Assembly (NCBI GenBank): GCA_947460235.1
Contig: CANHGK010000008.1
Location: 13,453-77,452, forward strand
Length of the DNA: 64,000 bases
Source of the DNA: Paenibacillaceae bacterium
GTDB taxonomy: Bacteria; Bacillota; Bacilli; Paenibacillales; CANHGK01
Reading direction: 5' to 3'
The position numbers were made by a program, and so were the translations under genes. Under the pieces are notes generated by a model. It made no database searches. It saw nothing but the letters and a program-made list of their open reading frames with translations, and was not told the DNA's origin. Positions 3,278-31,512 of this stretch are shown piece by piece. Position 1 is the stretch's first letter. The number at the start of each line of letters is the position of its first letter.

Positions 3278-6200
3278 ATGGTGTGGAACGTGAAAAAGAC
3301 ATGGATTGCATATCGATACCTACTCATCTGCGCAATTGTTTGCATCCTGTGGCTTCCTGCGTACTTAACTGCCTTAGCGGGCCCTGTCGGCGAAAAGGCT
3401 AACGCAATCCGTATTGCGAATTGGCCTAATGGATTTCAAAAAGATTCGGATTCGTTTCATGGTGGTGCATTTGATGGTAAGAATGTTTGGATGGCACCAT
3501 ATGATGCTGACCGTATCGTTAAGATTAATGTTGCAGATGGTGAGATGGGCTCAATTCGTGCTTTTCCAGATGGATACACGTATACGTCCGGAGCATTTAG
3601 TGGAGCAGTCTATGATGGCACTTCGGTTTGGTTCATTCCATTCAATGCAGAGCGGTTGATTAAGATTGATCCGATCACTCTAAAAGTTTCATATGGCCCA
3701 CAGTGGCCAAGTGATTTTAAGAAGATGCAATCCGCATTTGATGGCGGTGTTGTTATCGGTGATTATTTGTGGTTAATTCCCCATGCATCTGATAAATTAT
3801 TGCGTTTAAATATTAAAAATTTCGCGTGGGACGCGTATTCGAAATGGCCCAATAATTTTTCGCATGGTAATGGTGCATTTTCTGGTGGAGTAGCTTCGTT
3901 GGATGGAGGCACGCTTTGGTTGGTTCCGTCCGATGCGAATATGATCGTAAAAGTTAATGCTTCGAACGGTGAAATGACGGGAAACAATGCGTGGCCAATT
4001 GGATTTTCAAAAACGAATGGAGCATTTTCTGGAGGCGCTACAGATGGTAATGGTCTGTGGTTAGCACCAAAAAAAGCAGATAAATTGGTGCGACTTGATT
4101 TGGTGAGTGGTGGAATGACTAGTTTTGCGAAGTGGCCTGCGGGAATGTCAATTGGAATCAATGCGTTTTCTGGAGCGATATATGACGGGCGGGATATTTG
4201 GTTGACTCCGTATGGAGCGGATCGAATTGTTCGTGTCAAAACGAACGGAGAAATGAGTGCACCGATTACATGGCCAAATGGCTTAAACCGAGGGATTCAG
4301 GCGTTTCAAGGTTCGGTATTTGATGGTTCGGATTTATGGCTCATACCATCTTCGGCGGATGCTGTCTTGGAATTGGTTGGGAATCGAACTCCGACTGCGA
4401 ATGGATCAAGCATTCAATTAACTGAAGATATTCCATATAGCGGTTTGTTGTCAGCATCAGACCTGGATGCAGATCCGTTAAAATTTACGGTTGTCAAAAC
4501 ACCTTCTAAAGGTGTATTAACGTGGATAAATGATTCAACGGGAAACTATAAATATACTCCAAATCTAAATGCGAATGGATCGGATACCTTTACCTATCGG
4601 GTAAGTGATGGAGTTACCTTTTCTAGCGAGGCAACCGTTTCGGTTTCGATTGCAAATGAGAATGATCCACCTGTTGTGAATGCACTTACCATACAAGCGC
4701 GTGAAGATGAATCCAAAACTGGAATTGGGATCGCTAATGATCCAGAGTTAGATGCATTAGAATATCAGATTGTTTCAAATGGTTCAAAAGGAACGTTTAC
4801 TTTTACGAACAATAAGACCGGTGAATTTTTATATGTGCCAACACCGGATCAGAACGGAAGTGACGAAGTTTCGGTACGCGTTAAAGACGGGAAATTGTTT
4901 TCGAATACCGTTAAATGGCAAGTGAATATTGTTCCTGTTAATGATATGCCGATTGCAAAGGACGTTACATTGCAAACGAATGAAGATCTTGCTGTTCAAT
5001 CGAATTTGAAGGCTTCGGATATTGATGGCGATGCACTTTCCTATGAATTCATTCAACAACCAACGCATGGGAATGTGATGATCTCAGATATTACAAAAGG
5101 AACTGTGATTTATAAACCAGATGAAAATTATTTCGGTTCTGATCAATTTGTTTATACGGTATCAGATGGCCTTTTAACATCGGCGCCTGCGAATGTTAAA
5201 ATTAATATTGCACCGATTGACGATGCACCTGAATTAAGTAGTGCAAATTTTACAGTAGTTCAAGGCGTTTCATTGCATGAACAATTAACTGCTAGTGATT
5301 TGGAGAATGATCCGTTAACATTTGAAATCGTCTCACCTCCTACGCACGGTAAATGGAGTTGGATTAATGCAGCAGATGGGAGATTTACGTACGAACCCGA
5401 GTTGAATTGGACTGGAATTGAAACGATTCAAGTTGATGTAACGGATAATGTATTGAAATCGGAAGTGAAATCGATTTCGATTGTTGTTTCGCCGACCGTA
5501 AAAAAACCAGTTGAAGTAAAGCAAGAGTTTCAGGTGACGAGTGGTGTTTATACCGTTAATCGATTAAATGTTCCGAATTCTGAGCAGAATGATTTGACGT
5601 TTGCACTCATGCTGAATCCTGGAAAAGGGAAGTTTGAATGGATCGACAATCAACACGGGTATTTTTACTATCAATCCAAAAGTGGTTTTATTGGTGATGA
5701 CGAATTTGAATATTTAGTTAAGGATTCTGGCATATATTCTGAAATGGGTAAAATCATTTTGCACGTGTTGGCTGCAACGAATGCTCCAATTAATACGGTG
5801 AGCCCGACTCCTTCGCCTACGTCAGTCCCAACAAATAAGCCAACAGTGTCAATCACGCCATCACCTACACCTTTAATTGTGAATAGTCAATCTCCAGCAG
5901 TTTTGCTGTCAAATACACCAGCACCTACAGTATTGGTTTCAGCATCACCGAATGCGACTTCGGTGAATCAACAGAGTCATACGCCGTCTCCAACATCTGT
6001 AATTAATGTTTTGACAAATAATCCTAATGCAACAAGTTCATCAACACCGATTGCACCTGTTGCAACGCCAGTCGTGATTCCGCAAATTGTATACATTCCT
6101 TACTATATTGAAGTGACGCCGATTCCTACGGCTACTTCGACGCCTGTGATGATACCGAATCCTACACCAACGTTGGAAATTAAAAAAATAAACGTTACAG

Positions 6201-7207
6201 TTACACCGGTTCCGTTGTCGAAAGTGGTGAATATGCCAGAATTACATTCGAATCATGGATTGGACTGGGTGGAAATAGATGATCAGACATTGAATCAAGA
6301 AATTTCCAAAACAATCCCTTTGAAAATAATTGGCCAGAAAAATAAAGAAATTCAGTTCGAAGAAGTTGTTAATGATGATCAAAAGGTGTTATCAATGATT
6401 ATGAATGATCAATTGGTACTACGTCCGAATGATTCGTTTTTCACAATTAATTTTTCGGGAAAGCGAGTAAGCAAACCGGTGTCGATTACGATTAGGGCAT
6501 CGGATCGAATGGGGAATTGGTCTGATCAAATTGTGCTTGTTGATGTTCGCGAAGTTCAGCGTGTGGAAATTTCTGCATTGAATGATGTAGTACTACCTTT
6601 GCCTGAAGAATGGAAAATGCAATTGAATGCTGGAGCGAATTCGAAAAAAGCTGCGTTTATGAAGGTTGTTAAAATTCCTGTGACAATCGAAGTTCAAAAT
6701 CGCGATGAAGAAATGATGGTAAGTGCTCAGACGGATAGTGCGTGTGGTTTGCAAGTGGATGGGTTTAACGGGAAGTCAATATTGTCTGAGGACGAGTCCA
6801 GCCGAACATATTACTTGAATGTCGTTGTTACCGACCGTTCGTCATTACGTCCATGTCATGTAGAAGTGACAGCAACCAGTGAAGGTCTTTTGCCTCGCTC
6901 ACAATCGTTTACGATTACTCCCGAAAATGTTCGTCCGAAACTAAACTTTATTAATCCATTAATGGTTATTAAATCAAACCAGCGCAGATTAATCACAATT
7001 AAGGCGACCGATCCGAATCAAGATCGCTTGACGTATTCTGTTAAAGGTGGAAATGATCAGACGGTGAAATTGACTCGTCAAGGTAATGTTTGGTTTTTAA
7101 AACCTGCGCCTTCTTATAAAACGACCACAGGTGTTAAGTTTTCTGTCAGGGTTGAGGATGGAAGGGGCGGGTTTGATTCCAAAACGTTCCGAGTAATTGT
7201 TAAATAA
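3278..7207 (+). CDS. large secreted repeat protein: signal peptide, 7 propeller-like ~47-aa repeats, 4 cadherin/BIg-like ~95-aa repeats, Pro/Thr/Ser-rich linker, C-terminal domain
   Basis: N-terminal hydrophobic signal. Seven copies of AFSGGxxDGxxLWLxPxxADxIV(K/R)(V/I)...WPxGF. Four repeats with DxDxDPLxF...Y(T/K)PxxNxxGSDxFTYxVSDG. Low-complexity PT(S) stretch at nt ~5770-6230. No LPXTG or SLH motif seen. Confidence 0.6.
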   Translation: MVWNVKKTWIAYRYLLICAIVCILWLPAYLTALAGPVGEKANAIRIANWPNGFQKDSDSFHGGAFDGKNVWMAPYDADRIVKINVADGEMGSIRAFPDGYTYTSGAFSGAVYDGTSVWFIPFNAERLIKIDPITLKVSYGPQWPSDFKKMQSAFDGGVVIGDYLWLIPHASDKLLRLNIKNFAWDAYSKWPNNFSHGNGAFSGGVASLDGGTLWLVPSDANMIVKVNASNGEMTGNNAWPIGFSKTNGAFSGGATDGNGLWLAPKKADKLVRLDLVSGGMTSFAKWPAGMSIGINAFSGAIYDGRDIWLTPYGADRIVRVKTNGEMSAPITWPNGLNRGIQAFQGSVFDGSDLWLIPSSADAVLELVGNRTPTANGSSIQLTEDIPYSGLLSASDLDADPLKFTVVKTPSKGVLTWINDSTGNYKYTPNLNANGSDTFTYRVSDGVTFSSEATVSVSIANENDPPVVNALTIQAREDESKTGIGIANDPELDALEYQIVSNGSKGTFTFTNNKTGEFLYVPTPDQNGSDEVSVRVKDGKLFSNTVKWQVNIVPVNDMPIAKDVTLQTNEDLAVQSNLKASDIDGDALSYEFIQQPTHGNVMISDITKGTVIYKPDENYFGSDQFVYTVSDGLLTSAPANVKINIAPIDDAPELSSANFTVVQGVSLHEQLTASDLENDPLTFEIVSPPTHGKWSWINAADGRFTYEPELNWTGIETIQVDVTDNVLKSEVKSISIVVSPTVKKPVEVKQEFQVTSGVYTVNRLNVPNSEQNDLTFALMLNPGKGKFEWIDNQHGYFYYQSKSGFIGDDEFEYLVKDSGIYSEMGKIILHVLAATNAPINTVSPTPSPTSVPTNKPTVSITPSPTPLIVNSQSPAVLLSNTPAPTVLVSASPNATSVNQQSHTPSPTSVINVLTNNPNATSSSTPIAPVATPVVIPQIVYIPYYIEVTPIPTATSTPVMIPNPTPTLEIKKINVTVTPVPLSKVVNMPELHSNHGLDWVEIDDQTLNQEISKTIPLKIIGQKNKEIQFEEVVNDDQKVLSMIMNDQLVLRPNDSFFTINFSGKRVSKPVSITIRASDRMGNWSDQIVLVDVREVQRVEISALNDVVLPLPEEWKMQLNAGANSKKAAFMKVVKIPVTIEVQNRDEEMMVSAQTDSACGLQVDGFNGKSILSEDESSRTYYLNVVVTDRSSLRPCHVEVTATSEGLLPRSQSFTITPENVRPKLNFINPLMVIKSNQRRLITIKATDPNQDRLTYSVKGGNDQTVKLTRQGNVWFLKPAPSYKTTTGVKFSVRVEDGRGGFDSKTFRVIVK

Positions 7208-7222
7208 ACTAACATTATAATT

Positions 7223-7258
7223 TGACTTTGTGTGTAATGTTCGTGTATTATCATTTCA
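7223..7258 (+). promoter_or_regulatory. putative sigma-A promoter for the riboswitch-operon transcript
   Basis: TTGACT (7223) then ~18 nt then TATTAT, about 10 nt upstream of the riboswitch 5' end. Confidence 0.3.
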
Positions 7259-7274
7259 AGAAGATGAAAACACG

Positions 7275-7406
7275 ATATATCGACCTAGGGTTCCGTAGTT
7301 GTTGTTAATTTATATGACACACTAGCTGGTCCGAGAGGTAAAGAGTTCTGATGTTGATCTGTTTCAACCGATGAACTTACACACGGAGGGATAAAAGCCC
7401 GGGAGG
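7275..7406 (+). promoter_or_regulatory. guanidine-I riboswitch aptamer (ykkC/yxkD leader class)
   Basis: Conserved blocks CUAGGGUUCCG (7285-7295), GGUCCGAGAG (7328-7337) and ACACGGAGGGAUAAAAGCCCGGGAGG (7381-7406). Downstream gene context (TauA/NMT1-type ABC transporter plus ureohydrolase) is the classical guanidine-I context. Confidence 0.75.
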
Positions 7407-7431
7407 TTATGCATACTCCGCGGGCTTTTTG
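7396..7431 (+). terminator. riboswitch expression-platform terminator
   Basis: AGCCCGGGAG ... CUCCGCGGGCU stem with one bulge, followed by U5. The 5' arm is the 3' end of the aptamer, so the two structures are mutually exclusive. Confidence 0.6.
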
Positions 7432-7457
7432 TGTTCAAAAAAAGAGGAGGAATTGAG

Positions 7458-8501
7458 ATGAGCATGCCAGTAGCAATGAAATGGAGAAAGATGTTTGTGA
7501 TTTTTGCGGTAATCGTTGTATGCGTGTCAATGATGTTGTCAGGATGTGCAACGACGAATACTACGCAGAGTGAAACAGAGGGATCTTCAGATCAACCGAT
7601 TCAAATTGCACTGAGTCCTTGGCCGGGTTGGTACATCTGGTATTTGGCCGAGGAAAAAGGATTTTTCAAAAAACGTGGTGTGAATGTGGAACTGAAGTGG
7701 TTCCCTGTGTATAGCGATTCCTTGCAAGCATTATCTACGGGCCAAGTCGATGCAAATAGCCAGACATTGAGCGATACATTGGCGCCTCTTTCGAAGTCGA
7801 TTCCCTTAAAAGTGGTGTTGGTTAATGATAACTCGAATGGCGGCGATGCGATCGTAAGTAAGCCGGGCATCAACTCGATCGCTGACTTGAAAGGCAAAAC
7901 CGTTGCAACGGAACTTGGTACGGTCGACCATCTATTGCTGCTGACTGCTCTTGCGAATGCTGGAATGAAAGAAACAGACATCAATTATGTGAATATGACC
8001 GTCAATGATGCTGGACCTGCTTTTATTAATGGGAAAGTGGATGCGGCTGTGTTATGGGAGCCGTTCCAAACGAAAGCAGTTAAAGATGGCGGCGGAAAAG
8101 TATTATTCTCATCGAAAGAAACGCCTGGATTGATTCCTGATTTACTCGTGTTCAAAGCAGAAACAGTAGAGAAACGCGGCGATGATATTCAAAAAGTCGT
8201 CAACGCGTGGTTTGATGCATTAGCTGAATTGAAAGCTCATCCGGACGAGTCCATTGCCATTTTGGCGAAAAAAGCTGAGCAGACCCCAGCGGAGTTCAAA
8301 GAAGGATTGGATACGATCAAAGTGTTTACGAAAGCAGATAATATTAAAGCGTTTGATGCATTGGATGGATATGAGTCACTCTCCTTTACAGGCGGGAAAA
8401 CAGCGGAATTCTTACAAGGGTTGGAGATGGTTAGTTCCATTCCAGACGTAAAGGCAGCGCTTGAACCGAAGTTTGTGAAAGCTGCAGAAGCGGCGGAATA
8501 A
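7458..8501 (+). CDS. ABC transporter substrate-binding lipoprotein, NMT1/THI5 (SsuA/TauA-like) family
   Basis: Lipobox LSGC after signal peptide; NMT1-like periplasmic binding fold. ATG 7458 with a GGAGG RBS; the GTG at 7431 lies inside the terminator. Confidence 0.8.
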   Translation: MSMPVAMKWRKMFVIFAVIVVCVSMMLSGCATTNTTQSETEGSSDQPIQIALSPWPGWYIWYLAEEKGFFKKRGVNVELKWFPVYSDSLQALSTGQVDANSQTLSDTLAPLSKSIPLKVVLVNDNSNGGDAIVSKPGINSIADLKGKTVATELGTVDHLLLLTALANAGMKETDINYVNMTVNDAGPAFINGKVDAAVLWEPFQTKAVKDGGGKVLFSSKETPGLIPDLLVFKAETVEKRGDDIQKVVNAWFDALAELKAHPDESIAILAKKAEQTPAEFKEGLDTIKVFTKADNIKAFDALDGYESLSFTGGKTAEFLQGLEMVSSIPDVKAALEPKFVKAAEAAE

Positions 8502-8540
8502 TGGTTGGATGAATGGGATGGTTGGAGGAGGGCGAATCAA

Positions 8541-9299
8541 TTGAAGCAAAAAAAATATCTCGGATACTGGGCAATTAGTTCGTTTCTTCTCCTGTTTGGT
8601 GGATGGTTAGCGCTCAGTGAAAGCGGAGTGATGAATCCGACATTTTTGCCATCGCCTTTCGTGGTGTTCAAAACGATGGTGAAATTGCTCGGAACAGAGC
8701 AATATTGGACGCATATTGGCATGAGTTGTTTTCGAGTGGTAGCCGGTTTCTTGTTAGCGGTTGTAATTGGTGTACCACTTGGATTATTGGCAGGATATTC
8801 GAGGCGCGGAGCTGCATTTATTGAACCTCCGATGGAATTTATTCGTTATATGCCAGCAGTTGCGTTTATTCCGCTCGTGATGATATGGGCGGGGATCGGC
8901 GAATGGGCAAAAGTGATTATTATTTTTATCGGATGTTTTTTTCAGTTGGTGCTGATGGTAGCGGACATTACGAGGCGAGTAAATAAAGACTGGATCGATG
9001 CTGCGAGGACGATGGGTGCGACGCGCTGGGGTGTACTAGAGACGATCATTATTCCTGCGATCCGCCCAGAGTTGATGAATGGACTTCGATTATTGCTTGG
9101 ATGGGCTTGGACCTATTTGGTTGTTGCTGAGCTCGTCGCAGTAAATAGTGGTCTTGGATACGCAATTATGAAGGCGCAGCGGTTTTTGAATACAGATCAA
9201 ATTTTTGTTGGGATGATTGTGATCGGAGCACTAGGATTGATTAGTGATCGCGTATTCGCCTATTGTAACAAACGATTTTTCCCGTGGGCGCAATCCTAA
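8541..9299 (+). CDS. ABC transporter permease (binding-protein-dependent inner-membrane component)
   Basis: 6 TM with an EAA-like loop (AARTMGATRWGVLETIIIPAIRP). A TTG at 8541 follows GGAGGAGGG at the right spacing; an alternative ATG at 8505 has no RBS. Confidence 0.7.
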   Translation: MKQKKYLGYWAISSFLLLFGGWLALSESGVMNPTFLPSPFVVFKTMVKLLGTEQYWTHIGMSCFRVVAGFLLAVVIGVPLGLLAGYSRRGAAFIEPPMEFIRYMPAVAFIPLVMIWAGIGEWAKVIIIFIGCFFQLVLMVADITRRVNKDWIDAARTMGATRWGVLETIIIPAIRPELMNGLRLLLGWAWTYLVVAELVAVNSGLGYAIMKAQRFLNTDQIFVGMIVIGALGLISDRVFAYCNKRFFPWAQS

Positions 9300-9336
9300 G
9301 TGATGAGTGGGTTTGATAGATAGGGAGTGAATGTAG

Positions 9337-10092
9337 ATGTCAGCAGCTATAGAATTACAAAAACTCGGTAAAACGTTCGAGAGTAACCAAGGCATCGTCC
9401 ATGCACTTGAAGAAATCGAACTCTCCGTTCAAGCGGGAGAATTCGTGAGCGTACTTGGACCGAGTGGATGCGGCAAATCAACGATGCTTCGAATTTTGGC
9501 GGGACTAGAACCATATACGAGTGGACAAATCATTTGTGATGATCGCGTAATTACTGGTCCTGGTGCGGACCGTGGCATGGTTTTTCAGGCGTATACGCTT
9601 TTCCCGTGGTTAACCGTACGTGAAAATATCGAATATGGCCTCAAATTAGCAGGTAAACATATTTTTGAGCGTCGTCGTATTTCGGGGGCATGGCTCGATC
9701 GGATTGGATTATCGAGCTTTGCGAAGCACTATCCGAATCAATTGTCTGGTGGGATGAAACAGCGCGTGGCAATCGCACGTGCGTTAGCGAATAAACCGAA
9801 AGTTCTGCTCATGGACGAACCCTTTGGAGCGCTCGATGCACATACGAAATTAATGATGCAGCGGTTGTTGCAAGCATTGTGGGTGGATGAACGGCCGACG
9901 GTTGTGTTTATTACGCATGATGTTGATGAGGCGATTTATTTGGGGCAACGGGTCGTGGTGATGGGTGCAAGACCAGGGCGGATTGTAAAAGAATATCAGG
10001 TACACTTGCCAGAAAAACGCACCGAAGAAGTTCGAGGAAATGCACATTTTATTGAATTGCGAAAAATGTTATTACAAGATCTGGAACATTAA
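9337..10092 (+). CDS. ABC transporter ATP-binding protein
   Basis: Walker A GPSGCGKST, signature LSGGMKQR, Walker B LLMDEPFGALD. Confidence 0.85.
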   Translation: MSAAIELQKLGKTFESNQGIVHALEEIELSVQAGEFVSVLGPSGCGKSTMLRILAGLEPYTSGQIICDDRVITGPGADRGMVFQAYTLFPWLTVRENIEYGLKLAGKHIFERRRISGAWLDRIGLSSFAKHYPNQLSGGMKQRVAIARALANKPKVLLMDEPFGALDAHTKLMMQRLLQALWVDERPTVVFITHDVDEAIYLGQRVVVMGARPGRIVKEYQVHLPEKRTEEVRGNAHFIELRKMLLQDLEH

Positions 10093-10115
10093 ACAATTTA
10101 GAGAGAACATGGAGT

Positions 10116-11273
10116 GTGACGGATATGGCATTTTGGGATCAGCACGGATTAAACGCGCGGCGATTACAAAATAATGTGGAAGAATCAAAGGGAGATTTGC
10201 ATGGCATTCAGGCAGCGCATGCCGAGGCATTATTGCCAAGTACACGTGCAGACGCAGAAATTAAACGGGGTTTAGAGCTAGGACTTGAAGGTGCGGCAAG
10301 CATTGGTGATCGGACGATTTCTTGTTTTTCACGGGGCGAGTTGCCGCATTATGCGGGGATTAACACATTTTTGAAAATGCCGTATTTGGAAGATGTGCGA
10401 AGAGTCGGCGAGTATGATGCAGCAATTCTCGGTGTACCATTTGATATTGGTACGACCTATCGCTCAGGAACGCGTTTTGGTCCGCAGGCAATTCGCCGAA
10501 TTTCCGCTTTGTATCAAACGTACAATTATGAACTCGGTGTGGACTTGCGCGAGCAATTGAAACTATGCGATCTTGGAGATGTATTCACGATAGCGAATAT
10601 CGAGAAAAGTTTTGATCAAATTACAAAAGCCGTATCTCATGTAATGAGTCAAGGCACGATGCCGATTATTCTCGGTGGTGATCATTCAATCGGATATCCT
10701 TGTGTGCGCGGGGTCGCAGAAAACATTGACGGCGACATCGGAATTATTCATTTGGATCGTCATATCGACATTCAGGAAAAAGACATGGATGAGCGCATGC
10801 ATACGACGCCTTGGTTTCATGCAACCAATATCAAAAACGCAAAGCCGAAAAATCTCGTACAAATCGGGATCGGCGGCTGGCAAGTGCCGCGTGCCGGAGT
10901 TCAGGTAGGTCGTGAGCGCGGTACGACGATCATGACGATTAATGATGTCGAGACGCTTGGGATTGATAAAGTTGCTGAGATGGCGCTTGAAGTGGCGTGG
11001 AAAGGCTGTAAAGCGGTTTACTTGAGCTTTGATATTGATTCAATTGATTGCGGATTTGTGCCAGGGACGGGATGGCCTGAACCGGGAGGCTTTTTACCGC
11101 GCGAAGCACTTAAGTTAATGCAATTGGTGGCAAAAGAAGGACTGGCAGCGATGGAAGTTGTTGAAGTTGCGCCGGCCTATGATATTAGTGATACGACGGC
11201 GTTGCTCGCGGCACGTGCGGTACTTGATGTACTGGCAACGATGACGGCGCACGGAAAAATTGGAGGAAAGTAA
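10116..11273 (+). CDS. arginase/agmatinase-family ureohydrolase (candidate guanidine hydrolase)
   Basis: Ureohydrolase metal-site motifs GGDHSIGYP, HLDRHIDI and SFDIDSIDCGFVPGTG. The start is uncertain (GTG 10116 or ATG 10125). The stop overlaps the cbiM start. Confidence 0.7.
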   Translation: MTDMAFWDQHGLNARRLQNNVEESKGDLHGIQAAHAEALLPSTRADAEIKRGLELGLEGAASIGDRTISCFSRGELPHYAGINTFLKMPYLEDVRRVGEYDAAILGVPFDIGTTYRSGTRFGPQAIRRISALYQTYNYELGVDLREQLKLCDLGDVFTIANIEKSFDQITKAVSHVMSQGTMPIILGGDHSIGYPCVRGVAENIDGDIGIIHLDRHIDIQEKDMDERMHTTPWFHATNIKNAKPKNLVQIGIGGWQVPRAGVQVGRERGTTIMTINDVETLGIDKVAEMALEVAWKGCKAVYLSFDIDSIDCGFVPGTGWPEPGGFLPREALKLMQLVAKEGLAAMEVVEVAPAYDISDTTALLAARAVLDVLATMTAHGKIGGK

Positions 11274-11933
11274 ATGCACATCCCTGACGGATTTTTGGAT
11301 GCCAAAACATGGATCAGTACAACGCTACTTGGCGGGGCGGTGGTTATGTTGGCTTCGCGTAATGCCCAAGTAGGTTTGAAACGTGAACAAGTTCCCAAAA
11401 TGGGTCTGTTAGGGGCATTTATTTTTGCGACGCAAATGGTTAATTTTCCGATTGCTGGAGCAACTTCAGGACATTTTCTCGGCGGTGCAATGGCGGCAAT
11501 TTTGTTTGGACCTTGGGTCAGTGTGTTGTTGATGAGTGCAGTGCTGATTATTCAAGCGTTTATTTTTCAAGATGGTGGTGTAACCGTGCTGGGAGCAAAC
11601 ATCTTGTGTACAGGAGTTCTCGGTAGTTTTGCAGGGTATGGGATGTATCGTTTCCTTGGAGTACGGGGGTTTCAATGGCTTAGTGAATCAGTCAAAATTT
11701 TCACGGCTGCGTGGTGTTCAATTGTAGCTGCGGCGAGTGGTGTTTCGTTGTTACTTGCTTTATCAGGTACAATGCCACTTGCCATAGGATTACCGGCCAT
11801 GACAGGTTGGCATAGTTTGATTGGGATTGGTGAAGGCTTGATTAGTGTTTGGGTAATCGCTTATTGGCGCAAGGCGCAGGCCGTCGCTTCACCGATATTG
11901 GTTGATACGAATCAAAGCGGTGAACACCGATGA
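11274..11933 (+). CDS. cbiM: CbiM/NikM substrate-specific component of Ni/Co transporter
   Basis: Begins MHIPDGFLD, the processed N-terminus typical of CbiM/NikM. About 6 TM. The ATG directly abuts the upstream stop. Confidence 0.8.
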   Translation: MHIPDGFLDAKTWISTTLLGGAVVMLASRNAQVGLKREQVPKMGLLGAFIFATQMVNFPIAGATSGHFLGGAMAAILFGPWVSVLLMSAVLIIQAFIFQDGGVTVLGANILCTGVLGSFAGYGMYRFLGVRGFQWLSESVKIFTAAWCSIVAAASGVSLLLALSGTMPLAIGLPAMTGWHSLIGIGEGLISVWVIAYWRKAQAVASPILVDTNQSGEHR

Positions 11934-12199
11934 AGTTGCCGAATATGAAGTTATGGATCGGTGTTGTCGTAGTAATGGTTGTTTGTGGTGTCTTATCGTA
12001 TTTTTCTTCAACATCACCGGATGGACTCGAGCGCGTGGCAGTTGACCTAGGATTTTCTAATCAAGAGAAAACGTATTGGTCGAATGCGCCAGTAGCGAAT
12101 GGTCAATATGGAATCATGGGATGGATAGGCGTCGCACTCGTATTCGGACTCGTCTGGTTATGGGGACGCATCGTTACGAAAGGCAAAGATCGGGGATAG
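11930..12199 (+). CDS. PDGLE-domain small membrane protein (CbiN-like partner of CbiM)
   Basis: 89 aa with 2 TM and an SPDGLERVA motif. ATGA start/stop overlap with cbiM. Confidence 0.55.
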   Translation: MKLPNMKLWIGVVVVMVVCGVLSYFSSTSPDGLERVAVDLGFSNQEKTYWSNAPVANGQYGIMGWIGVALVFGLVWLWGRIVTKGKDRG

Positions 12200-12203
12200 T
12201 TAC

Positions 12204-13757
12204 ATGAAAAAAAGTGCACAATCGATTAAATATCGTACAGCGGGATTGCTCGTTGTACTCATGAGCATGGTGCTATGGTCGGACGAGCGTGTGTTAATTG
12301 GATATAGTGTAGTTCTTTGTTTATTCATGTGGTGGAGCGGGTTATCGCTTCGAGAGGCGGGGCAACGATTGTTGTTACTCATTCCTTTCGGTGCGGGAAC
12401 ACTCGCTTTTTTGCCGTTCCATGGACATGAGGTTGTGGTCGGTGATGTGATGGGGTGGCACGTATATGAAGATGGACTCACGAAGGCGATTGGTTTGCTA
12501 TTAAAAATGGTCAATGCGAGTTTGATCCTTAGTATGATGTTGCATAAGATTGATTCGGGGCAATTTTTTCATAGTTTGCGTGCGCTCGGATTGCCGAAAT
12601 TATTGACTGAGCTGTTGCAACTGATGATGCGCTATGTTCATGTGCTAGGGGAAGAAGCTCGGTCCATGGTACTTGCTCAAAAGGCGCGAGGATTTCGGGC
12701 ACAAGGTTGGTGGTGGTCGATCAACAATTATCGACGTTTTGGGCAGTTGATGGGTGTTTTATTTGTGCGAAGTTTACGGCGCAGTGAGCGAGTTGATTTG
12801 GCGATGCGTTCACGCGGGGAACGTGAATGGTTTGGGGGTACTGACATGGAAACGTCTATGGAAAAATCGTTAAGTGGTCGCTCGGAATGGGCCGTAGAAA
12901 TGAAGGGTGTCGGTTACTCCTATGCAGGAAGTAACTCACTAGCACTGCGCGGAATCGATTTGTCGATTCGAAGTGGGAGTAAAACGGTATTGATGGGGAT
13001 GAATGGTGCGGGGAAATCGACGCTCATTTCGTTATTGAACGGACTGGCGCAGGTCTCAAAGGGAATGTATCGTTTGTTCGGACAAGAAATTACGGAGAAA
13101 AATGCGATGCATGCGAGGCGTGGTGTCGGTGTCGTTTATCAGGACCCTGATGATCAATTGTTTTCGCCAACGGTCTCAGAAGACATCGCATATGGTCCAT
13201 CGAATATGGGCCTATCGGAATCGGAAATTGAAGATCGTGTTACATATGCGATTGGTGCAGTTGGGTTGAGCGCTTTGGCAGATAAGTCTCCGTTTGAACT
13301 TAGTTACGGACAGAAGCGGCGAGTTGCAATTGCCGGTGTGATGGCGATGCGACCACCAATGATGGTGCTCGATGAACCAATGGCCTATCTTGATCCGCGT
13401 GGTCGGGATGAATTGCAGGCATTGCTTGAACAGTTGCATTTGATGGGAACAACCCTCATCGTAGCGACGCACGATGTTGATTTTGCTGCAGAATGGGCAG
13501 ATCATGTGATCATTTTGCGCGACGGGAAAGTACTTGCTGAAGGGGATGTTTCGCTTTTATTCGATGAAAAAATTGTGTATGAAGCAGGGCTGCATTTGCC
13601 GAGGTTGGTCAGACCATTTCGATTGTTGCAAGGCGCAGGCGATGTGAAACCGCGCACGGTTCGACAAGCGGCGCAAGAAATGTGGCGTTTGATTTTGAAA
13701 GGGACGAATGCAGAAACGAAGCATGACGAGCAAAATCAACTCAAATCTTTTCGTTGA
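12204..13757 (+). CDS. fused CbiQ (T component) - CbiO (ABC ATPase) of Ni/Co transporter
   Basis: N-terminal ~220-aa polytopic membrane domain. C-terminal ABC domain with Walker A GMNGAGKST, signature LSYGQKRR and Walker B MVLDEPMAYLD. Confidence 0.75.
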   Translation: MKKSAQSIKYRTAGLLVVLMSMVLWSDERVLIGYSVVLCLFMWWSGLSLREAGQRLLLLIPFGAGTLAFLPFHGHEVVVGDVMGWHVYEDGLTKAIGLLLKMVNASLILSMMLHKIDSGQFFHSLRALGLPKLLTELLQLMMRYVHVLGEEARSMVLAQKARGFRAQGWWWSINNYRRFGQLMGVLFVRSLRRSERVDLAMRSRGEREWFGGTDMETSMEKSLSGRSEWAVEMKGVGYSYAGSNSLALRGIDLSIRSGSKTVLMGMNGAGKSTLISLLNGLAQVSKGMYRLFGQEITEKNAMHARRGVGVVYQDPDDQLFSPTVSEDIAYGPSNMGLSESEIEDRVTYAIGAVGLSALADKSPFELSYGQKRRVAIAGVMAMRPPMMVLDEPMAYLDPRGRDELQALLEQLHLMGTTLIVATHDVDFAAEWADHVIILRDGKVLAEGDVSLLFDEKIVYEAGLHLPRLVRPFRLLQGAGDVKPRTVRQAAQEMWRLILKGTNAETKHDEQNQLKSFR

Positions 13758-13783
13758 GTGAATAGATAATCGAGCGTATAATT
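13752..13783 (+). promoter_or_regulatory. putative sigma-A promoter for PilZ gene
   Basis: TTGAGT, 17-nt spacer, TATAAT. Confidence 0.35.
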
Positions 13784-13819
13784 TGATTATCTAATTTCGC
13801 GACAAATGAGGTGTTTAGC

Positions 13820-14233
13820 TTGGACGCAGTTTCAAATCAACGAGTGCATCCGCGGATCTCGATTAGTGGAAAGATCAAATTTTCGTTTATTGCATTTAAA
13901 ATTGGTGAAAACGGCAAATATGAAGAAGATATTTCAATTATTGAAACACAAATTCGCGATATTTCCCTTGGCGGCATCAGCTTTGAAGATGTGCGAAGTT
14001 ATGAGCCTGGCATGAAAGGGTATATTTTTATTGTAATCGGACGCAGAAGATATGCACTCGTTGGTGAAGTTGTACGGTGTATTTCAGGCCAAAATGCGTA
14101 TCAAGTCGGAATCGCATTAGATAAAAATTTGAATGATGATGGAATGTTTGAACCGAGTGAAGAAATTGTGGAATTAATTCAGCGCTTAGAAGTATTACTT
14201 GAACATGATCCGAATTATACGAACATCACGTAA
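13820..14233 (+). CDS. PilZ-domain protein (c-di-GMP receptor family), paralog A
   Basis: RxxxR motif (QRVHPR) and DxSxGG motif (RDISLGG). TTG 13820 follows a GAGGTG RBS. Confidence 0.65.
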   Translation: MDAVSNQRVHPRISISGKIKFSFIAFKIGENGKYEEDISIIETQIRDISLGGISFEDVRSYEPGMKGYIFIVIGRRRYALVGEVVRCISGQNAYQVGIALDKNLNDDGMFEPSEEIVELIQRLEVLLEHDPNYTNIT

Positions 14234-14247
14234 TTGGAGGACGGACT

Positions 14248-14598
14248 ATGTTTCAGCGCATTCCATTGGATGAGCCGATTAAGACGCATTGGGTGCTGCG
14301 TTTTTTTATTTTGTTTTTACCTTGTTTGTTCGTTCGGTTTGCCGTTGGTCCAATTCAAGCACATTTAGGAATTTTGCCGGGCAGTTTTTACTGGTTCGGC
14401 ATTTTATATTTTCCGATGACAAATTGGACGATATATTGGGTGATGTTTACGATTCGTGTAGGAATCAATCGGATCGCCGGAAATGAGCGGATTACCGTTC
14501 CTAAATTGCGGAAATTTTATCGTTGGTACTTAAACGTGCCGGGTGGATTGGTATTATCGGAGTTGGTATTTCAGGGCTATTTGTATAATGCGGGATAA
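14248..14598 (+). CDS. hypothetical membrane protein
   Basis: 116 aa, 3 predicted TM. GGAGG RBS upstream; no recognisable motif. Confidence 0.4.
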   Translation: MFQRIPLDEPIKTHWVLRFFILFLPCLFVRFAVGPIQAHLGILPGSFYWFGILYFPMTNWTIYWVMFTIRVGINRIAGNERITVPKLRKFYRWYLNVPGGLVLSELVFQGYLYNAG

Positions 14599-14611
14599 GA
14601 ATGGACGTGGA

Positions 14612-14640
14612 TCACTCATTCGAGTGGTCTTTTTTTTGCA
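14612..14640 (+). terminator. weak rho-independent terminator
   Basis: GATCACTC-ATTC-GAGTGGTC hairpin followed by T8. Confidence 0.35.
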
Positions 14641-14735
14641 GAAAAATCCAGTGTCACAATAGGAAAGGCAGGGGAATCTTTGTGTGGAAAAGAATTGTAT
14701 ACAGATAAATGCTACTAGGGAAAAGGAGGGGTTTT

Positions 14736-17438
14736 GTGTTTTGGAAAAGACGAAGACTTCACATTGGAATTATGATAACGATGATCTTTTGGATCGTTTT
14801 ATTGATGGCTAGTGAATCTGTATATGCTGCACAATCTGAGAAAATTGTGAATTTAGAGCAAGGATGGGCATATTCAAAGGCAGAGGTGAAACCGGACCAG
14901 ATGGATTCGGTGAAGTGGGAAGCACTAAATCAATTATCGGATAGCAAACTTTCTGAACAAAATTCGGAAACGCCGGTCGTTTCATTTCGGATTACATTGC
15001 CAAATGTGGACTGCGTGGAATGTGTGTTATCATTCGAGCGATATATTCGTTCATATGTGTTATATGTAGATGGGCACGAAGTTGCATCTTCAGGTGGTGG
15101 GGCTACCAGTCAATTGTTGTCACTGGGAAAACCAGATGCAATTATTGATTTACCGGGGACGCCAAAAGGGAAACAATTATTACTTGTGGAGAATATTTCA
15201 CACCGATCAACGCCGCTTTATTCACCAATTTATTTTGGTGATAAAGAAACAATAATACGAAAACAGTTGTCCGGGGAACGTACGCAAATCATTATATCAA
15301 TGCTCGTATTGATGACGGGATTGATTTCGACGATGTTGTATTTATCGCTCAAGAAAGATGCAGCTTTTTTGAATCTCGGATTATGTGCAACGAATATTGG
15401 GTTGTATATGCTAAGTTGTTCGGGCATGGTTCATTATTTCTCTAATGATATGCCATTTTGGGATTTTCTCGAATATTTGACTCTTTATACGATGCCGTTG
15501 ACGACGTGGTATTATTTCCGCAACTTTGTCACATCTAAACCAAGTTTACATTGGTCACTCGTGGCCGGAAATGGTGGATTTATTTTATTTTCGTTACTTC
15601 AACAAGTTCGTGGCATTGCATTGTTTGAGTACGTTGGGATTCAGCGCGTCGTATTTCTAGTATCGCTGGTGTTTATTATTGCAGAATTGGTCCGTTCTGC
15701 ACGAGCCGGGAATCGTGAGGCAAAAATGGTTGTAGCTGCCTTTATTATTACGTGCTTAATTACCATGTGTAAAATTATTGCACTCTTTTTTAATGTGGAT
15801 TTAACGAATTTAACTTCCTATGCCGGTGGATTTTTCATGTTGTCACAATTGTTCGTGATGACTGACCGTTTCCGCAGAATGAATGAAGAACTGAGCATTC
15901 ATTCCAAGAATCTGGAACGATTCAATGAAGTTATGGAAGGGGAAGTGCATAGTCGTACGAAGCAAGTGCGTACGTTGATGGACAATGTAGCGCAAGGATT
16001 TTTAACGGTTGGGCCGAATTTGATTGTGGAAAAAGAGTTTTCCAAGGCGTGTATTAAATTACTTGGTGAGGAACCTGCGGGCCGAAATATTGTTGATTTA
16101 TTAACACGGGGCGATGCATCGAAAACGGAATGGCTGGAGAGGATGTTCCGTGATGTATTCGAAACGACTGAGCAATTCAAAATTGATATGTATGTTCAAT
16201 TACTGCCGAGTGAAATTGTCAGAGATGGTAGAACGTTGGGGATTTCGATGGAAGTCGTTCGCAGTGTGAATGAAAAACCTGAACATCTGATTTTAATGTT
16301 TAACGATCTAACGAAACAACGCGCACTCGAAGAAAAATTGAAAAATGAAGAGAAGCTAATGCGTATGATTGTGACGGTTTTGTCGCGTTCACGAGATTAT
16401 GCGGACTTAGTAGATGATTACCATCAATTTGTCGACTACGACTTGCCGAGTCTATTGAAAAATGTTCATTCGGAAATGACGCCAGATGTTCGGGTGCTCA
16501 GACTCGTGCATACGTTCAAAGGAAATTTCGCACAAATGAACTCCATTCTCTTAGCGGCACATTTGCATGAGATTGAGCACACGATTAAACGCGGGGAGCA
16601 TGAGCGTTTGGAGGAGTGGGCATTTAGGGTTTCGCAATTCGAATGGAAACAAGCACTGCAAAAAGAACAGCAACGCATGTTTGAAATTTTACCGGCGCAT
16701 CATTGGAACGATCAAAAAAATGCGATCCCAGTGCCGCGTAATACATTACTACATTTGCGCGATTATATTTTAGATAACTTACCAAATGATTTGGCGTCAT
16801 CGTTGGTAAAAGAGGTTGAACGTTTATACCAAAAATCGTTTGCGAGTTTATTCGAAGCGGTTGCTGAAAACACTTCTCAACTTGCAGAACGAATAAATAA
16901 AATGATCGAACCAGTGACCATCGAAGGCGGGGAATGGTTTGTTGATTTGGAACCTTGGTATGGATGGTCAAAATCATTAATTCACATTTCGCGTAATCAA
17001 GTAGATCACGGGATCGAGGATCCGGATATACGCATCGATACCGGCAAAGAATTATATGGTAAAATAAGCATTTCGATTGCCCAAGATTTGAATCATGTCA
17101 CCATTCGTTTTGCAGATGATGGCGCTGGAATTAATGTCGATAAATTACGTAAAAAGTTAATTAGTAATCAAATGATTTCTGTCGCACAAGTAGCAACGTT
17201 GCCAGATCATGAGTTGTATCGTTATTTATTTATGGATTCAGTAAGTACGAGGGATTCTGTATCGGAGTTGTCAGGTCGTGGCGTAGGTCTGGCGAAAGTG
17301 CTTGAGGAGACTGAAAAACTTGGTGGAACAATCGAAGTGGAGTCTGTGGTTGGTATTGGAACGACATTTATTTTCTGCATTCCCGTCAGAGATGGGTTGC
17401 CAGTAGCACAACAATCACATCGTGAAATCGCATCGTAA
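14736..17438 (+). CDS. 7TMR-DISM sensor fused to HPt domain and CheA-type HATPase (class-II-like histidine kinase)
   Basis: Signal peptide KRRR...VYA-AQ, ~150-aa extracytoplasmic domain and 7 TM. HPt-like HTFKGNFAQMN. CheA-type N box HISRNQVDHGIE, G1 DDGAGIN, G2 GRGVGL. No HisKA H-box and no CheW-like P5 domain. GTG 14736 follows GGAGGGG. Confidence 0.7.
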   Translation: MFWKRRRLHIGIMITMIFWIVLLMASESVYAAQSEKIVNLEQGWAYSKAEVKPDQMDSVKWEALNQLSDSKLSEQNSETPVVSFRITLPNVDCVECVLSFERYIRSYVLYVDGHEVASSGGGATSQLLSLGKPDAIIDLPGTPKGKQLLLVENISHRSTPLYSPIYFGDKETIIRKQLSGERTQIIISMLVLMTGLISTMLYLSLKKDAAFLNLGLCATNIGLYMLSCSGMVHYFSNDMPFWDFLEYLTLYTMPLTTWYYFRNFVTSKPSLHWSLVAGNGGFILFSLLQQVRGIALFEYVGIQRVVFLVSLVFIIAELVRSARAGNREAKMVVAAFIITCLITMCKIIALFFNVDLTNLTSYAGGFFMLSQLFVMTDRFRRMNEELSIHSKNLERFNEVMEGEVHSRTKQVRTLMDNVAQGFLTVGPNLIVEKEFSKACIKLLGEEPAGRNIVDLLTRGDASKTEWLERMFRDVFETTEQFKIDMYVQLLPSEIVRDGRTLGISMEVVRSVNEKPEHLILMFNDLTKQRALEEKLKNEEKLMRMIVTVLSRSRDYADLVDDYHQFVDYDLPSLLKNVHSEMTPDVRVLRLVHTFKGNFAQMNSILLAAHLHEIEHTIKRGEHERLEEWAFRVSQFEWKQALQKEQQRMFEILPAHHWNDQKNAIPVPRNTLLHLRDYILDNLPNDLASSLVKEVERLYQKSFASLFEAVAENTSQLAERINKMIEPVTIEGGEWFVDLEPWYGWSKSLIHISRNQVDHGIEDPDIRIDTGKELYGKISISIAQDLNHVTIRFADDGAGINVDKLRKKLISNQMISVAQVATLPDHELYRYLFMDSVSTRDSVSELSGRGVGLAKVLEETEKLGGTIEVESVVGIGTTFIFCIPVRDGLPVAQQSHREIAS

Positions 17439-31459: not shown

Positions 31460-31469
31460 GAATAGAAGA

Positions 31470-31512
31470 AAAAGCCCCAATCCACATTCGGATTGGGGCT
31501 TTTTCTTCGTTC
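31470..31512. terminator. bidirectional terminator
   Basis: AAAAGCCCCAATCC...GGATTGGGGCTTTTT. Confidence 0.6.

Follow-up and report, generated by a model that had tools for sequence, protein, structure and literature searches.

A guanidine-I riboswitch just under the Rfam gathering score very likely controls a guanidinase operon with an ECF-type metal importer in a Paenibacillaceae bacterium

Seven tightly packed genes (7458-13757, + strand) lie in the window, by which we mean the whole 64-kb stretch of DNA analysed. They are preceded by an intergenic gap of 250 nt, running from the stop codon of a surface-protein gene at 7207 to the first ATG at 7458; an earlier reading, made from the sequence alone, had given the leader 170 nt. 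The features of the gap and the operon are collected in Table 1.

Table 1. Features of the leader and of the operon behind it (window positions)
Feature	Position	Strand	Remarks
GlnR/TnrA-type box TGTTAAATAAACTAACA	7198..7214	+	exact TGTNAN7TNACA; 7 nt upstream of -35
Sigma-A-type promoter candidate	7222..7251	+	TTGACT 7222-7227, 18-nt spacer, TATTAT 7246-7251
Guanidine-I (ykkC subtype 1) aptamer	7274..7407	+	RF00442, R1 lineage model, covariation
P1	7280-7285 with 7337-7342	+	4 of 6 pairs
Conserved block CTAGGGTTCCG	7285-7295	+	
P1a/P1b	7288-7332	+	helix of aptamer
Second exact TGTNAN7TNACA match TGTTAATTTATATGACA	7303..7319	+	inside distal P1b hairpin
Conserved block GGTCCGAGAG	7328-7337	+	
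Subtype marker adenosine	7336	+	equivalent to A46 of guanidine-I structure (C49 in PRPP/ppGpp aptamers)
P2	7343-7380	+	6 pairs, U7378-A7379 bulged
Conserved block ACACGGAGGGATAAAAGCCCGGGAGG	7381-7406	+	
P3	7382-7402	+	short helix, 4 pairs
Intrinsic terminator	7396..7430	+	hairpin and T-run: 5' arm AGCCCGGGAG 7396-7405, 10-nt loop 7406-7415, 3' arm CTCCGCGGGCT 7416-7426 (G7420 bulged), T5 7426-7430
RBS and substrate-binding lipoprotein gene	7444..8501	+	RBS GAGGAGG 7444-7450, ATG 7458, lipobox LSGC
ABC permease	8505-9299	+	BPD_transp_1 9.2e-28
ABC ATPase	9337-10092	+	ABC_tran 1.9e-34
Arginase-family hydrolase, GdmH-type guanidinase	10116..11273	+	PDB matches; gene callers start 10125, 382 aa
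CbiM/NikM-like S-component	11274-11933	+	Pfam CbiM 4.8e-54
PDGLE-domain small protein	11930-12199	+	Pfam PDGLE 6.6e-10
CbiQ-CbiO fusion	12204-13757	+	Pfam CbiQ and ABC_tran

The binding protein encoded by the first gene belongs to the NMT1/SsuA family (Pfam NMT1 3.5e-28, NCBIfam SsuA_fam 1.3e-62) and resembles GimA of the guanidine importer GimABC (PMC12704784). It is 41-47% identical to the binding proteins that cyanobacterial loci encode behind gdmH, and its nearest relatives are in Paenibacillaceae and Bacillales genomes (up to 74% identity); a PDB search with it found no close solved homologue and thus no pointer to its ligand. The hydrolase finds in the PDB the N. inopinata guanidinase (9fek, E = 3.7e-157) and Synechocystis GdmH (7esr/7oi1, 4.5e-150; structure identities according to PMC11410670), the next-best family being guanidinobutyrase at 2.7e-48. 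It shares 58-63% identity with cyanobacterial gdmH and 77-88% with the Bacillota copies, and so groups with the characterised GdmH-type enzymes, apart from agmatinases and guanidino-acid hydrolases. Its nearest characterised relatives are two Ni-dependent guanidinases, and it would split guanidine into urea and ammonium. The sequence-only reading had seen an ABC system and a ureohydrolase here and called this a guanidine context. Both are present, but the context was undersold: the hydrolase lies near Ni-dependent guanidinases, and the operon continues into genes for ECF metal uptake.

The start and stop codons of these ECF genes (11274..13757) touch or overlap the preceding genes. The S-component has as its nearest PDB entries 4m58/4m5b (E = 2e-23), with Rhodobacter CbiM (5x3x) at 7.4e-13. 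Together these proteins would form an ECF-type Ni/Co importer that probably supplies nickel to the guanidinase, nickel being its presumed metal. No homologues of GhaA or GhaB were found in the 64-kb window when the cyanobacterial ORFs that lie between gdmH and the binding-protein gene were used as queries. The gene order of the window is repeated in six related loci (L001, L005, L009, L012, L016, L017), and weak GhaB-like matches occur outside the operon in L001, L012 and L016.

The gap contains a full-length match to RF00442, the guanidine-I family (model positions 1-107 of 107, 58.9 bits), with E = 3.5e-10 in a search of the leader and E = 6.4e-8 when the whole window, both strands, was searched against 4227 families. 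The window has this one aptamer copy only. The curated gathering score of RF00442, which is an operational cut-off and not a biological definition of the class, is 63 bits, 4 bits more than the window copy attains. A scan of the window at default gathering cut-offs therefore returned no Rfam match, and the riboswitch is absent from standard annotation; a search by E-value exposed it. The earlier reading had named the lack of an RF00442 hit above threshold as what would speak against it, and by the letter this is the outcome, although the match spans the entire model. Two further matches of the E-value search were set aside as chance: Thr_leader at 31412-31507, whose 35 bits fall short of its gathering score of 55 (E = 0.009), and MPMV_package (E = 8.6). 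The seven relatives tested with RF00442 all score above the gathering score (67.8-96 bits). What costs the window copy its score is two mismatches in P1 (C7281/A7341 and G7282/A7340), the 2-nt bulge of P2 and two loops lengthened by insertions, and not the conserved nucleotides, which are intact. With a model built from its own lineage (R1, of which the window sequence is part) it reaches 72.1 bits, the lowest of 83 copies. The leader is not an assembly artefact, since a 281-nt stretch of it is 100% identical in an independent metagenome assembly (SRR6788424); the exact operon proteins also recur in independent metagenomes (Logan contigs). A metagenome scan for close relatives of the leader found none.

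The three blocks that the sequence-only reading had recognised as ykkC-like are where it had put them. They carry the blocks of the class (CUAGGGUUCCG, GGUCC(G/A)AGAG and ACGGA(G/A)GGA-N5-GCC(C/U)GGGAG) with zero substitutions, and all 38 invariant columns of a 73-sequence alignment, like the nearly invariant nucleotides, are intact in the window copy. All four helices of the class form, P1 with only 4/6 pairs; in P1 the window copy is the outlier of the alignment, the relatives being 97.7% paired. In a constrained fold the three junction-proximal pairs of P1 form together with P1a, P2 and P3; the full leader, folded as a whole, has no exceptional stability (z = -1.73). Measured against the guanidine-I model, the window copy has a 1-nt instead of a 2-nt bulge in P1a, and its P1b and P2 loops are enlarged, with 21 and 24 unaligned nt where the model has 9 and 6.

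Searching for relatives yielded 82 related aptamer copies in 80 loci, from which 73 distinct copies, window included, were aligned and examined for covariation over 27 pairs. Helix cells are paired in 94.0% of cases; shuffling lowers this to 74.4% and sliding the register to 31-48%. Of the pairs, 19/27 have compensatory changes on both sides; in P3, for example, pair 153/165 goes from G-C to A-U in 27 sequences. Not one of 500 shuffles attained the observed covariation value on any measure. In 56/57 Bacillota loci the gene right after the aptamer is that of the binding protein, whatever gene precedes the aptamer.

At its 3' end the aptamer runs into a G+C-rich hairpin of nine pairs (eight G-C, one A-U) with one bulge, followed immediately by U5. 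The terminator that had been proposed here is thus a real hairpin with its T5, its 3' coordinates having been off by one. A simple terminator scan does not list it because its loop exceeds the 8-nt limit of that scan. The core of the hairpin is worth -15.7 kcal/mol, or -20.5 once an A-U extension is counted, and P3 alone -3.3; by nearest-neighbour energies the terminator fold (-40.5 kcal/mol) is 23 kcal/mol more stable than the aptamer fold (-17.4). Four bases, C7398, C7399, C7400 and G7402, belong both to the 3' strand of P3 and to the 5' arm of the terminator, so that the two structures are mutually exclusive, as the earlier reading had proposed. A survey anchored on the GCC arm found an equivalent hairpin overlapping P3, with a T-run, in 56/63 Bacillota copies. 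This conserved overlap implies that the default state is OFF and that guanidine should switch it ON. We are confident that the leader (7274-7430) is a guanidine-I riboswitch acting as a transcriptional ON switch for the seven-gene guanidine operon, and we infer ligand binding and the direction of switching in vivo from the features described.

The mechanism that we propose is as follows. Transcription most likely starts at about 7258-7260 from the TTGACT-18-TATTAT promoter, and the nascent RNA would form P1, P1a/P1b and P2. If there is no guanidine, the four-pair P3 would yield its 3' strand to the more stable terminator (7396-7426 plus U5) and the polymerase would halt before the first gene. 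Guanidinium, if present, would be held in a pocket around the invariant GAGAG and ACGGAGGGA blocks and would keep P3 in place; with C7398-C7400 and G7402 occupied, the terminator could not nucleate and read-through into the operon would follow.

The promoter candidate has 10/12 consensus positions and is joint-best in 6900-14800, where that count alone is not above chance; the call is supported because its position relative to a GlnR/TnrA-type box is conserved in relatives. The -10 ends 23 nt before the start of the Rfam match, so the promoter sequence that the sequence-only reading had set about 10 nt upstream is present but lies farther off. The box, which overlaps the upstream gene's stop codon, matches the GlnR/TnrA consensus TGTNAN7TNACA (PMC6191146; PMC9948412) at a conserved promoter position. 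The same layout of box, -35 and -10 is found in six Cohnella-type loci (L002, L003, L004, L006, L013, L018), and at least one box lies within 260 nt upstream of the aptamer in 56/63 Bacillota relatives (shuffles: mean 0.63, maximum 3). Going by its place 7 nt upstream of the -35, this candidate box probably adds control by nitrogen status at initiation, binding of GlnR or TnrA and its sign being predictions. The conservation of the candidate boxes suggests joint control by nitrogen status and guanidine, and full expression would require guanidine together with the right nitrogen status. A simple scan found no terminator between the surface-protein gene and the leader, so that read-through from upstream into the leader is possible.

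The second exact match to the consensus needs separate mention. A box inside the aptamer occurs in the window copy only (1/63 Bacillota copies), and a scan of the JGI metagenome collection found no other guanidine-I aptamer with a GlnR box in P1b. Its 16-mer is identical to one at L009:9774-9789, which lies there between promoter and aptamer, and in the RNA the two half-sites of the box, TGTTA and TGACA, pair to make the distal P1b stem. Does the DNA that encodes P1b (7303-7319, about +45 to +61 from the presumed start) double as a second GlnR/TnrA operator? We think this rather unlikely. If it did, a repressor bound under nitrogen excess would block elongation inside the riboswitch, the same letters would be an operator for a protein as DNA and a structural hairpin as RNA, and with the conserved upstream box there would be a three-checkpoint gate consisting of initiation, roadblock and antitermination.

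Could the riboswitch be decaying, with an aptamer that folds or binds poorly, so that the leader attenuates constitutively or terminates leakily and the actual regulation is left to the GlnR/TnrA-type promoter? The low scores invite the question, for the window copy ranks last with the lineage model and, alone among the eight tested, falls under the Rfam gathering score, and it has mismatches at two P1 pairs where relatives are almost always paired. These defects, however, spare every invariant and nearly invariant nucleotide, the helices listed above still form, and the terminator is intact and strong. Loop length says little, varying widely in functional-looking relatives (aptamers of 86-153 nt). 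The downstream ORFs are all intact (7/7), and identical copies of the proteins and of the leader are found in independent metagenomes; a permanently terminating leader before an intact operon would face counter-selection. We accordingly regard decay as improbable and retain a working ON switch as the preferred reading.

A match to RF00442 does not by itself settle the ligand, because this family also matches subtype-2 RNAs, and the ykkC subtypes are set apart by few nucleotides (PMC9881157; PMC6031431). The same scaffold could then belong to a subtype-2 variant that binds ppGpp, PRPP or a nucleoside diphosphate, or to the orphan subtype 2d. The nucleotide equivalent to A46 separates subtype 1 from subtypes 2a and 2b, which have a pyrimidine there (PMC6031431). 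We fixed this position in the window through the published PRPP alignment, as the second A of GAGAG and the ninth base of GGTCCGAGAG. It is an adenosine in the window and in 81/81 copies collected, and a C in 24/24 PRPP rows read; the marker thus follows guanidine-I and not subtypes 2a and 2b, a check of the kind that the sequence-only reading had proposed. The surrounding blocks agree: PRPP aptamers have GGUCC(G/A)AGCG in 24/24 rows where the window has GGUCCGAGAG, and CACC(G/A/U) and mostly CCCAG(A/G) where it has CACGG and CCCGGG, so that CACGG and CCCGGGAG fit guanidine-I. The gene context points the same way, since a GimABC-like importer and a GdmH-type guanidinase lie directly downstream, and not the branched-chain amino-acid or purine biosynthesis genes of subtypes 2a and 2b, nor NUDIX or EamA/TauE genes. 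Subtype 2d, described as nearest to guanidine-I, was compared by its description. Taking these points together we consider a subtype-2 ligand very improbable. It may be added that the flanks of the window aptamer and its relatives look, by eye, unlike PRPP flanks; in subtypes 2a and 2b conserved 5' and 3' extensions make up a helix P0.

One might also suppose that the aptamer match arose by chance in AT-rich intergenic DNA and that the hairpin is a plain terminator of the surface-protein gene, as the sub-threshold score and the lack of a separate terminator after that gene might suggest. The comparative data effectively refute this, for an orthologous covarying element recurs at the same position behind any upstream gene. 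The whole-window E-value is low, three long blocks agree letter for letter with the family consensus, and the stretch from the upstream stop codon to the aptamer holds a promoter-like element and its conserved regulator box.

Experiments in Synechocystis and other species have established that guanidine-I riboswitches control gdmH and guanidine ABC importers (PMC12704784; PMC12186494), and the riboswitch of the window is nothing new in kind: guanidine-I switches, their terminator platforms and their link to guanidinase and ABC importers are all known. What the window copy illustrates is that the Rfam gathering score can miss a guanidine-I riboswitch that is fully formed, so that default annotation leaves such operons seemingly unregulated. 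The operon itself shows, with its relatives, that several Bacillales lineages have a riboswitch-controlled guanidinase operon that includes an ECF Ni/Co importer, GhaAB-type nickel maturases not being detected within it. The importer offers a testable answer to how a guanidinase is supplied with nickel without chaperones, a point called unclear for comammox Nitrospira. The strong conservation of GlnR/TnrA-type boxes before the riboswitches predicts, further, that nitrogen-status and guanidine sensing are combined in Bacillota, as they are through NtcA in cyanobacteria. A text search of the literature, which is no proof of novelty, found no paper on either the ECF importer or the GlnR/TnrA boxes in this setting.

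How does the locus compare with known systems? With the terminator-type guanidine-I ON switches of Bacillota it shares the three-helix architecture, the identical conserved blocks, the A46-equivalent adenosine, a P3 whose 3' strand is shared with the terminator, and guanidine-related target genes; it differs in its weak P1 (4/6) and in the 2-nt bulge of P2. The nif promoter of Paenibacillus polymyxa, with its two GlnR sites (PMC6191146), is similar in that TGTNAN7TNACA sites flank the promoter: by analogy, the site upstream of the -35 would be read as activating and another, found in many relatives downstream of the -10 or start, as repressing. In the window, by contrast, the only downstream match is inside aptamer-coding DNA, the presumed target is an operon for guanidine assimilation with a riboswitch of its own, and the sites are candidates.

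Synechocystis sp. PCC 6803 (gdmH-ghaAB and gimABC; PMC12704784) has likewise a guanidine-I switch over GdmH and a homologous ABC guanidine importer, and a nitrogen-regulator site at the promoter on top of the riboswitch, NtcA there and a GlnR/TnrA-type candidate in the window. The order in the window is reversed, with the importer before gdmH and both apparently in one unit behind a single riboswitch; where Synechocystis has ghaAB, the window has a CbiM/PDGLE/CbiQ-O importer after gdmH; and its platform is an intrinsic terminator, which is absent from the cyanobacterial relatives examined. The operon of comammox Nitrospira (PMC11410670) is closer in order, consisting of a guanidine-I switch, a transporter and then a GdmH-type guanidinase, and its enzyme (9FEK) is the best PDB match of the window hydrolase. 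Both operons are without Ni chaperones. The comammox transporter is an APC permease whereas that of the window is an ABC system, and the route of nickel loading is described as unclear for comammox (PMC11410670) whereas the window operon has a dedicated metal uptake system.

A full-length match to RF00442 (guanidine-I; model positions 1-107) covers 7274-7407 of the plus strand at 58.9 bits in E-value mode, with E-values of 3.5e-10 for the leader and 6.4e-8 for the whole window on both strands against all 4227 families. The gathering score is 63, however, leaving the window copy 4 bits short, and a default scan of the 64 kb on both strands returned no family at gathering thresholds, neither RF00442 nor any tRNA, rRNA or other riboswitch. 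The sequence-only reading, which had looked to RF00442, is thus borne out in the length of the match but not in its score. The shortfall is accounted for by the cmscan alignment: P1 has mismatches at two of its six pairs, P2 has two deleted positions (on its 3' strand, a bulge of 2 nt), one P1a bulge nucleotide is missing relative to the model, and the unaligned loops are enlarged (P1b, 21 nt vs 9 in the model; P2, 24 vs 6). The same alignment matches all upper-case consensus nucleotides of the family. We hold it very probable that the leader is a true transcriptional ON riboswitch of the guanidine-I class (subtype 1), in a slightly weakened form that escapes default Rfam annotation. Its three signature blocks lie exactly where they had been placed by eye. 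Since 281 nt of leader recur with 100% identity in an independent metagenome assembly, blocks, terminator and promoter are not an assembly artefact. The sole other sub-threshold match in the window, Thr_leader at 31412-31507 (35 bits vs 55, E = 0.009), is probably due to chance.

Features of the riboswitch leader and the operon behind it (window coordinates)
Feature	Sequence	Position	Strand	Remark
GlnR/TnrA-type box	TGTTAAATAAACTAACA	7198-7214	+	exact TGTNAN7TNACA, just upstream of -35
Promoter candidate	TTGACT-18-TATTAT	7222-7251	+	consensus match
Conserved block	CTAGGGTTCCG	7285-7295		direct reading of 7100-7560
Second box	TGTTAATTTATATGACA	7303-7319	+	exact TGTNAN7TNACA, inside distal P1b hairpin
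Conserved block	GGTCCGAGAG	7328-7337		direct reading of 7100-7560
Conserved block	ACACGGAGGGATAAAAGCCCGGGAGG	7381-7406		direct reading of 7100-7560
Terminator 5' arm	AGCCCGGGAG	7396-7405	+	direct reading; paired arm from 7396/7397
Terminator 3' arm	CTCCGCGGGCT	7416-7426	+	G7420 bulged
Terminator T5 run		7426-7430	+	direct reading; hairpin loop 10 nt
RBS	GAGGAGG	7444-7450	+	precedes ATG 7458
Binding protein, NMT1/SsuA family		ATG 7458	+	lipobox LSGC
ECF metal importer		11274-13757		CbiM/NikM-type S-component, small PDGLE-domain protein, CbiQ-CbiO fusion

Relatives were collected by searching one genome per species with the first downstream gene, which gave 80 loci, mostly from Paenibacillus and Cohnella, along with further Bacillales and a picocyanobacterial block. 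A three-block pattern search recovers the aptamer from almost every locus, and a covariance model built on the relatives yields 82 copies. In 56/57 Bacillota loci the aptamer immediately precedes the binding-protein gene; in the cyanobacterial loci it lies about 4 kb upstream of that gene, in front of gdmH (Ni-dependent guanidinase), in agreement with the published arrangement in Synechocystis. From first to last block the relatives span 86-153 nt, a range that includes the 121 nt of the window. Seventy-three distinct copies were aligned with MAFFT, which is blind to structure, and the Rfam helices were then written onto the columns. Standard pairs occupy 94.0% of cells, against 74.4% in shuffles and 31-48% when partners are displaced by 1-3 columns. 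Two-sided changes are seen in 19 of 27 pairs, P3 changes cleanly from G-C to A-U in 27 sequences, and none of 500 shuffles attains the observed value on any measure. Because the helices covary beyond both shuffles and slid registers, the fold is real in the lineage. The window copy contains the whole fold, P1 being its weak point. Seven relatives run against RF00442 all exceed the threshold (67.8-96 bits); a lineage model scores the window copy lowest of 83, at 72.1 bits, a value that is not independent, the window sequence being part of the model. Some loci have several guanidine-I aptamers: three each within 10 kb in L019 and L020, and two each in L047, L050 and L054. L049 has a second aptamer at 9523-9622 on the opposite (minus) strand, some 140 nt away from the copy that precedes the binding-protein gene, giving two riboswitches that diverge from a single intergenic region.

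Which ligand is sensed? RF00442 also matches ykkC subtype-2 RNAs, and a match does not therefore name the ligand by itself. (One paper calls RF00442 matches on ilv/leu operons guanidine riboswitches; under published definitions these would be subtype 2a.) At the A46-equivalent position guanidine-I has adenosine, whereas the ppGpp/PRPP classes have a pyrimidine (C49; Knappenberger et al., PMC6031431), and sorting by this position alone separates gene contexts almost completely (PMC6031431). We mapped it via the published PRPP alignment (PMC5912903, supplementary file 2), in which PRPP aptamers read GGUCC(G/A)AGCG, with C in all 24 rows read, and guanidine-I aptamers GGUCC(G/A)AGAG. This difference falls at the ninth base of the block, making A7336 the marker in the window; every one of the 81 collected copies has A there. 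The marker is distinct from the sixth base, G or A among the relatives, which varies in PRPP aptamers too. In addition, the window has CACGG where PRPP rows have CACC(G/A/U), and CCCGGGAG where they mostly have CCCAG(A/G). The preference of the sequence-only reading for guanidine over ppGpp or PRPP is upheld by the adenosine at A7336, which is C in PRPP aptamers. Subtypes 2c and 2d, compared by gene context only, do not fit, their NUDIX/HAD hydrolases and EamA/TauE transporters being a mismatch to this locus.

The overlapping terminator reported earlier is present, although its 3' coordinates had been set one base too high. Four of its 5'-arm bases, C7398, C7399, C7400 and G7402, are also used by P3 (C7382-G7402, G7388-C7400, G7389-C7399, G7390-C7398), so that aptamer and terminator are mutually exclusive, as had been claimed. 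Nearest-neighbour energies, which leave out tertiary contacts and ligand, are -20.5 kcal/mol for the terminator hairpin vs -3.3 for P3 alone, and -40.5 vs -17.4 kcal/mol for the terminator and aptamer folds with P1, P1a and P2 enforced. They indicate that termination is the default state; read-through would need a ligand-stabilised P3, the published mode of guanidine-I switches (PMC12704784). A GCC(C/T)GGGAG arm in a hairpin running straight into a T-run occurs in 56 of 63 Bacillota copies. The 17 cyanobacterial-type copies (L061-L080) all lack such a hairpin with T-run, as does the proteobacterial L060. Some 15-25 nt ahead of the gdmH start codon, L061-L080 instead have a C-rich stretch ending CTCCGTG, the complement of CACGGAG in the aptamer; having this stretch and no terminator, they imply a different expression platform.

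The riboswitch itself is unsurprising, its class being known; the interest lies in the probable nickel importer of its operon and in conserved nitrogen-regulator boxes. The binding-protein gene is followed by permease, ATPase and arginase-family genes. The last product matches PDB 9fek (E = 3.7e-157) and 7esr/7oi1 (E = 4.5e-150) best, the next family following only at E = 2.7e-48; 9FEK is the Nitrospira inopinata guanidinase and 7OI1/7ESR are Synechocystis GdmH (PMC11410670). The ABC system and ureohydrolase first noted here are an NMT1/SsuA importer and an arginase-family guanidinase relative. The three ECF genes behind them are packed so closely that start and stop codons touch or overlap. 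Their S-component is nearer to 4m58/4m5b (E = 2e-23), the nickel-binding component NikM2 of Thermoanaerobacter, than to Rhodobacter CbiM 5x3x (E = 7.4e-13); the PDGLE partner is below the threshold of every CbiN model. We infer that the substrate is nickel, because there is no cobalamin riboswitch and because the importer is co-transcribed with an enzyme whose characterised relatives need Ni2+. Six relatives (L001, L005, L009, L012, L016, L017) have the identical seven-gene order. In these and in L003, L004 and L007 the CbiM/PDGLE/CbiQ-CbiO importer sits with the guanidine importer, usually with the guanidinase as well; in the latter three it follows the ABC genes with no guanidinase between. 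The 64-kb window has no homologues of the cyanobacterial ORFs at the ghaA/ghaB (nickel maturase) position. The riboswitch would control guanidine import, a guanidinase and probable nickel uptake; the guanidine importer GimABC, GdmH, GhaAB and riboswitch control have been described (PMC12704784, PMC12186494).

Beyond the operon, the next promoter-like site (TTGAGT-17-TATAAT, 10/12; 13754) directly follows the last stop codon and precedes a 140-aa PilZ-domain ORF and a 116-aa ORF that matches no family, a unit ending at the next clean terminator (14609-14630). In L001, one of the closest relatives, Rfam 5_ureB_sRNA matches 3704-4015 with 96.8 bits, some 1.1 kb ahead of the riboswitch, probably reflecting a conserved urease gene adjoining the operon; a urease there would suit urea as guanidinase product. 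In L006, L010, L011, L014, L015, L019 and L020 the permease gene is about 8 kb from its matching ATPase gene, and our guess is that the inserted genes encode a guanidine carboxylase pathway.

The sigma-A promoter motif proposed earlier is present, just downstream of an exact TGTNAN7TNACA, the site common to GlnR and TnrA (PMC6191146, PMC9948412). The window has two exact matches vs 1.66 expected by chance, so the count there is uninformative alone. Among the relatives, at least one exact box lies within 260 nt upstream of the aptamer in 56/63 Bacillota riboswitch copies (Paenibacillaceae, Bacillaceae), many loci having two boxes 50-60 nt apart that flank or overlap the promoter; dinucleotide shuffles of these AT-rich segments gave on average 0.63 box-bearing segments (maximum 3), and the window's own segment acquired one in 58 of 5000. 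Five of the seven box-less copies are second, internal riboswitches inside operons. Six Cohnella-type loci share the order box, 6-8 nt, TTGAC-type -35, 17-18 nt, -10, and the window's layout is identical; as sequence evidence, this box-anchored layout supports the promoter far better than a consensus match. A GlnR site directly upstream of -35 has been read as activating, and one downstream of the start as repressing (PMC6191146). The candidate boxes suggest nitrogen-status control on top of guanidine sensing. The window operon is probably under GlnR/TnrA control as well, and its expression would need a nitrogen-status signal and guanidine together. The upstream gene (3278-7207), whose 1309-aa product contains bacterial Ig/cadherin-like domains in repeats (Big_9, Cadherin_4 and Cadherin_5), has its stop codon within the box, and no terminator lies between it and the promoter.

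The second box of the window has half-sites that form the distal P1b stem in RNA. In the other 62 Bacillota copies the aptamer is free of boxes, relaxed ones included, and no guanidine-I aptamer in the JGI metagenome collection has one at the P1b position. Its 16-mer GTTAATTTATATGACA is identical to L009:9774-9789, which lies between promoter and aptamer. This box may act as an operator within the DNA that encodes the riboswitch, may be a relic, or may be coincidental, the last because every hairpin is an inverted repeat.

In a text search, no paper turned up that connects GlnR/TnrA with guanidine operons. In Synechocystis NtcA is combined with the riboswitch (PMC12704784), an arrangement that the predicted GlnR/TnrA control plus riboswitch of the window would mirror.
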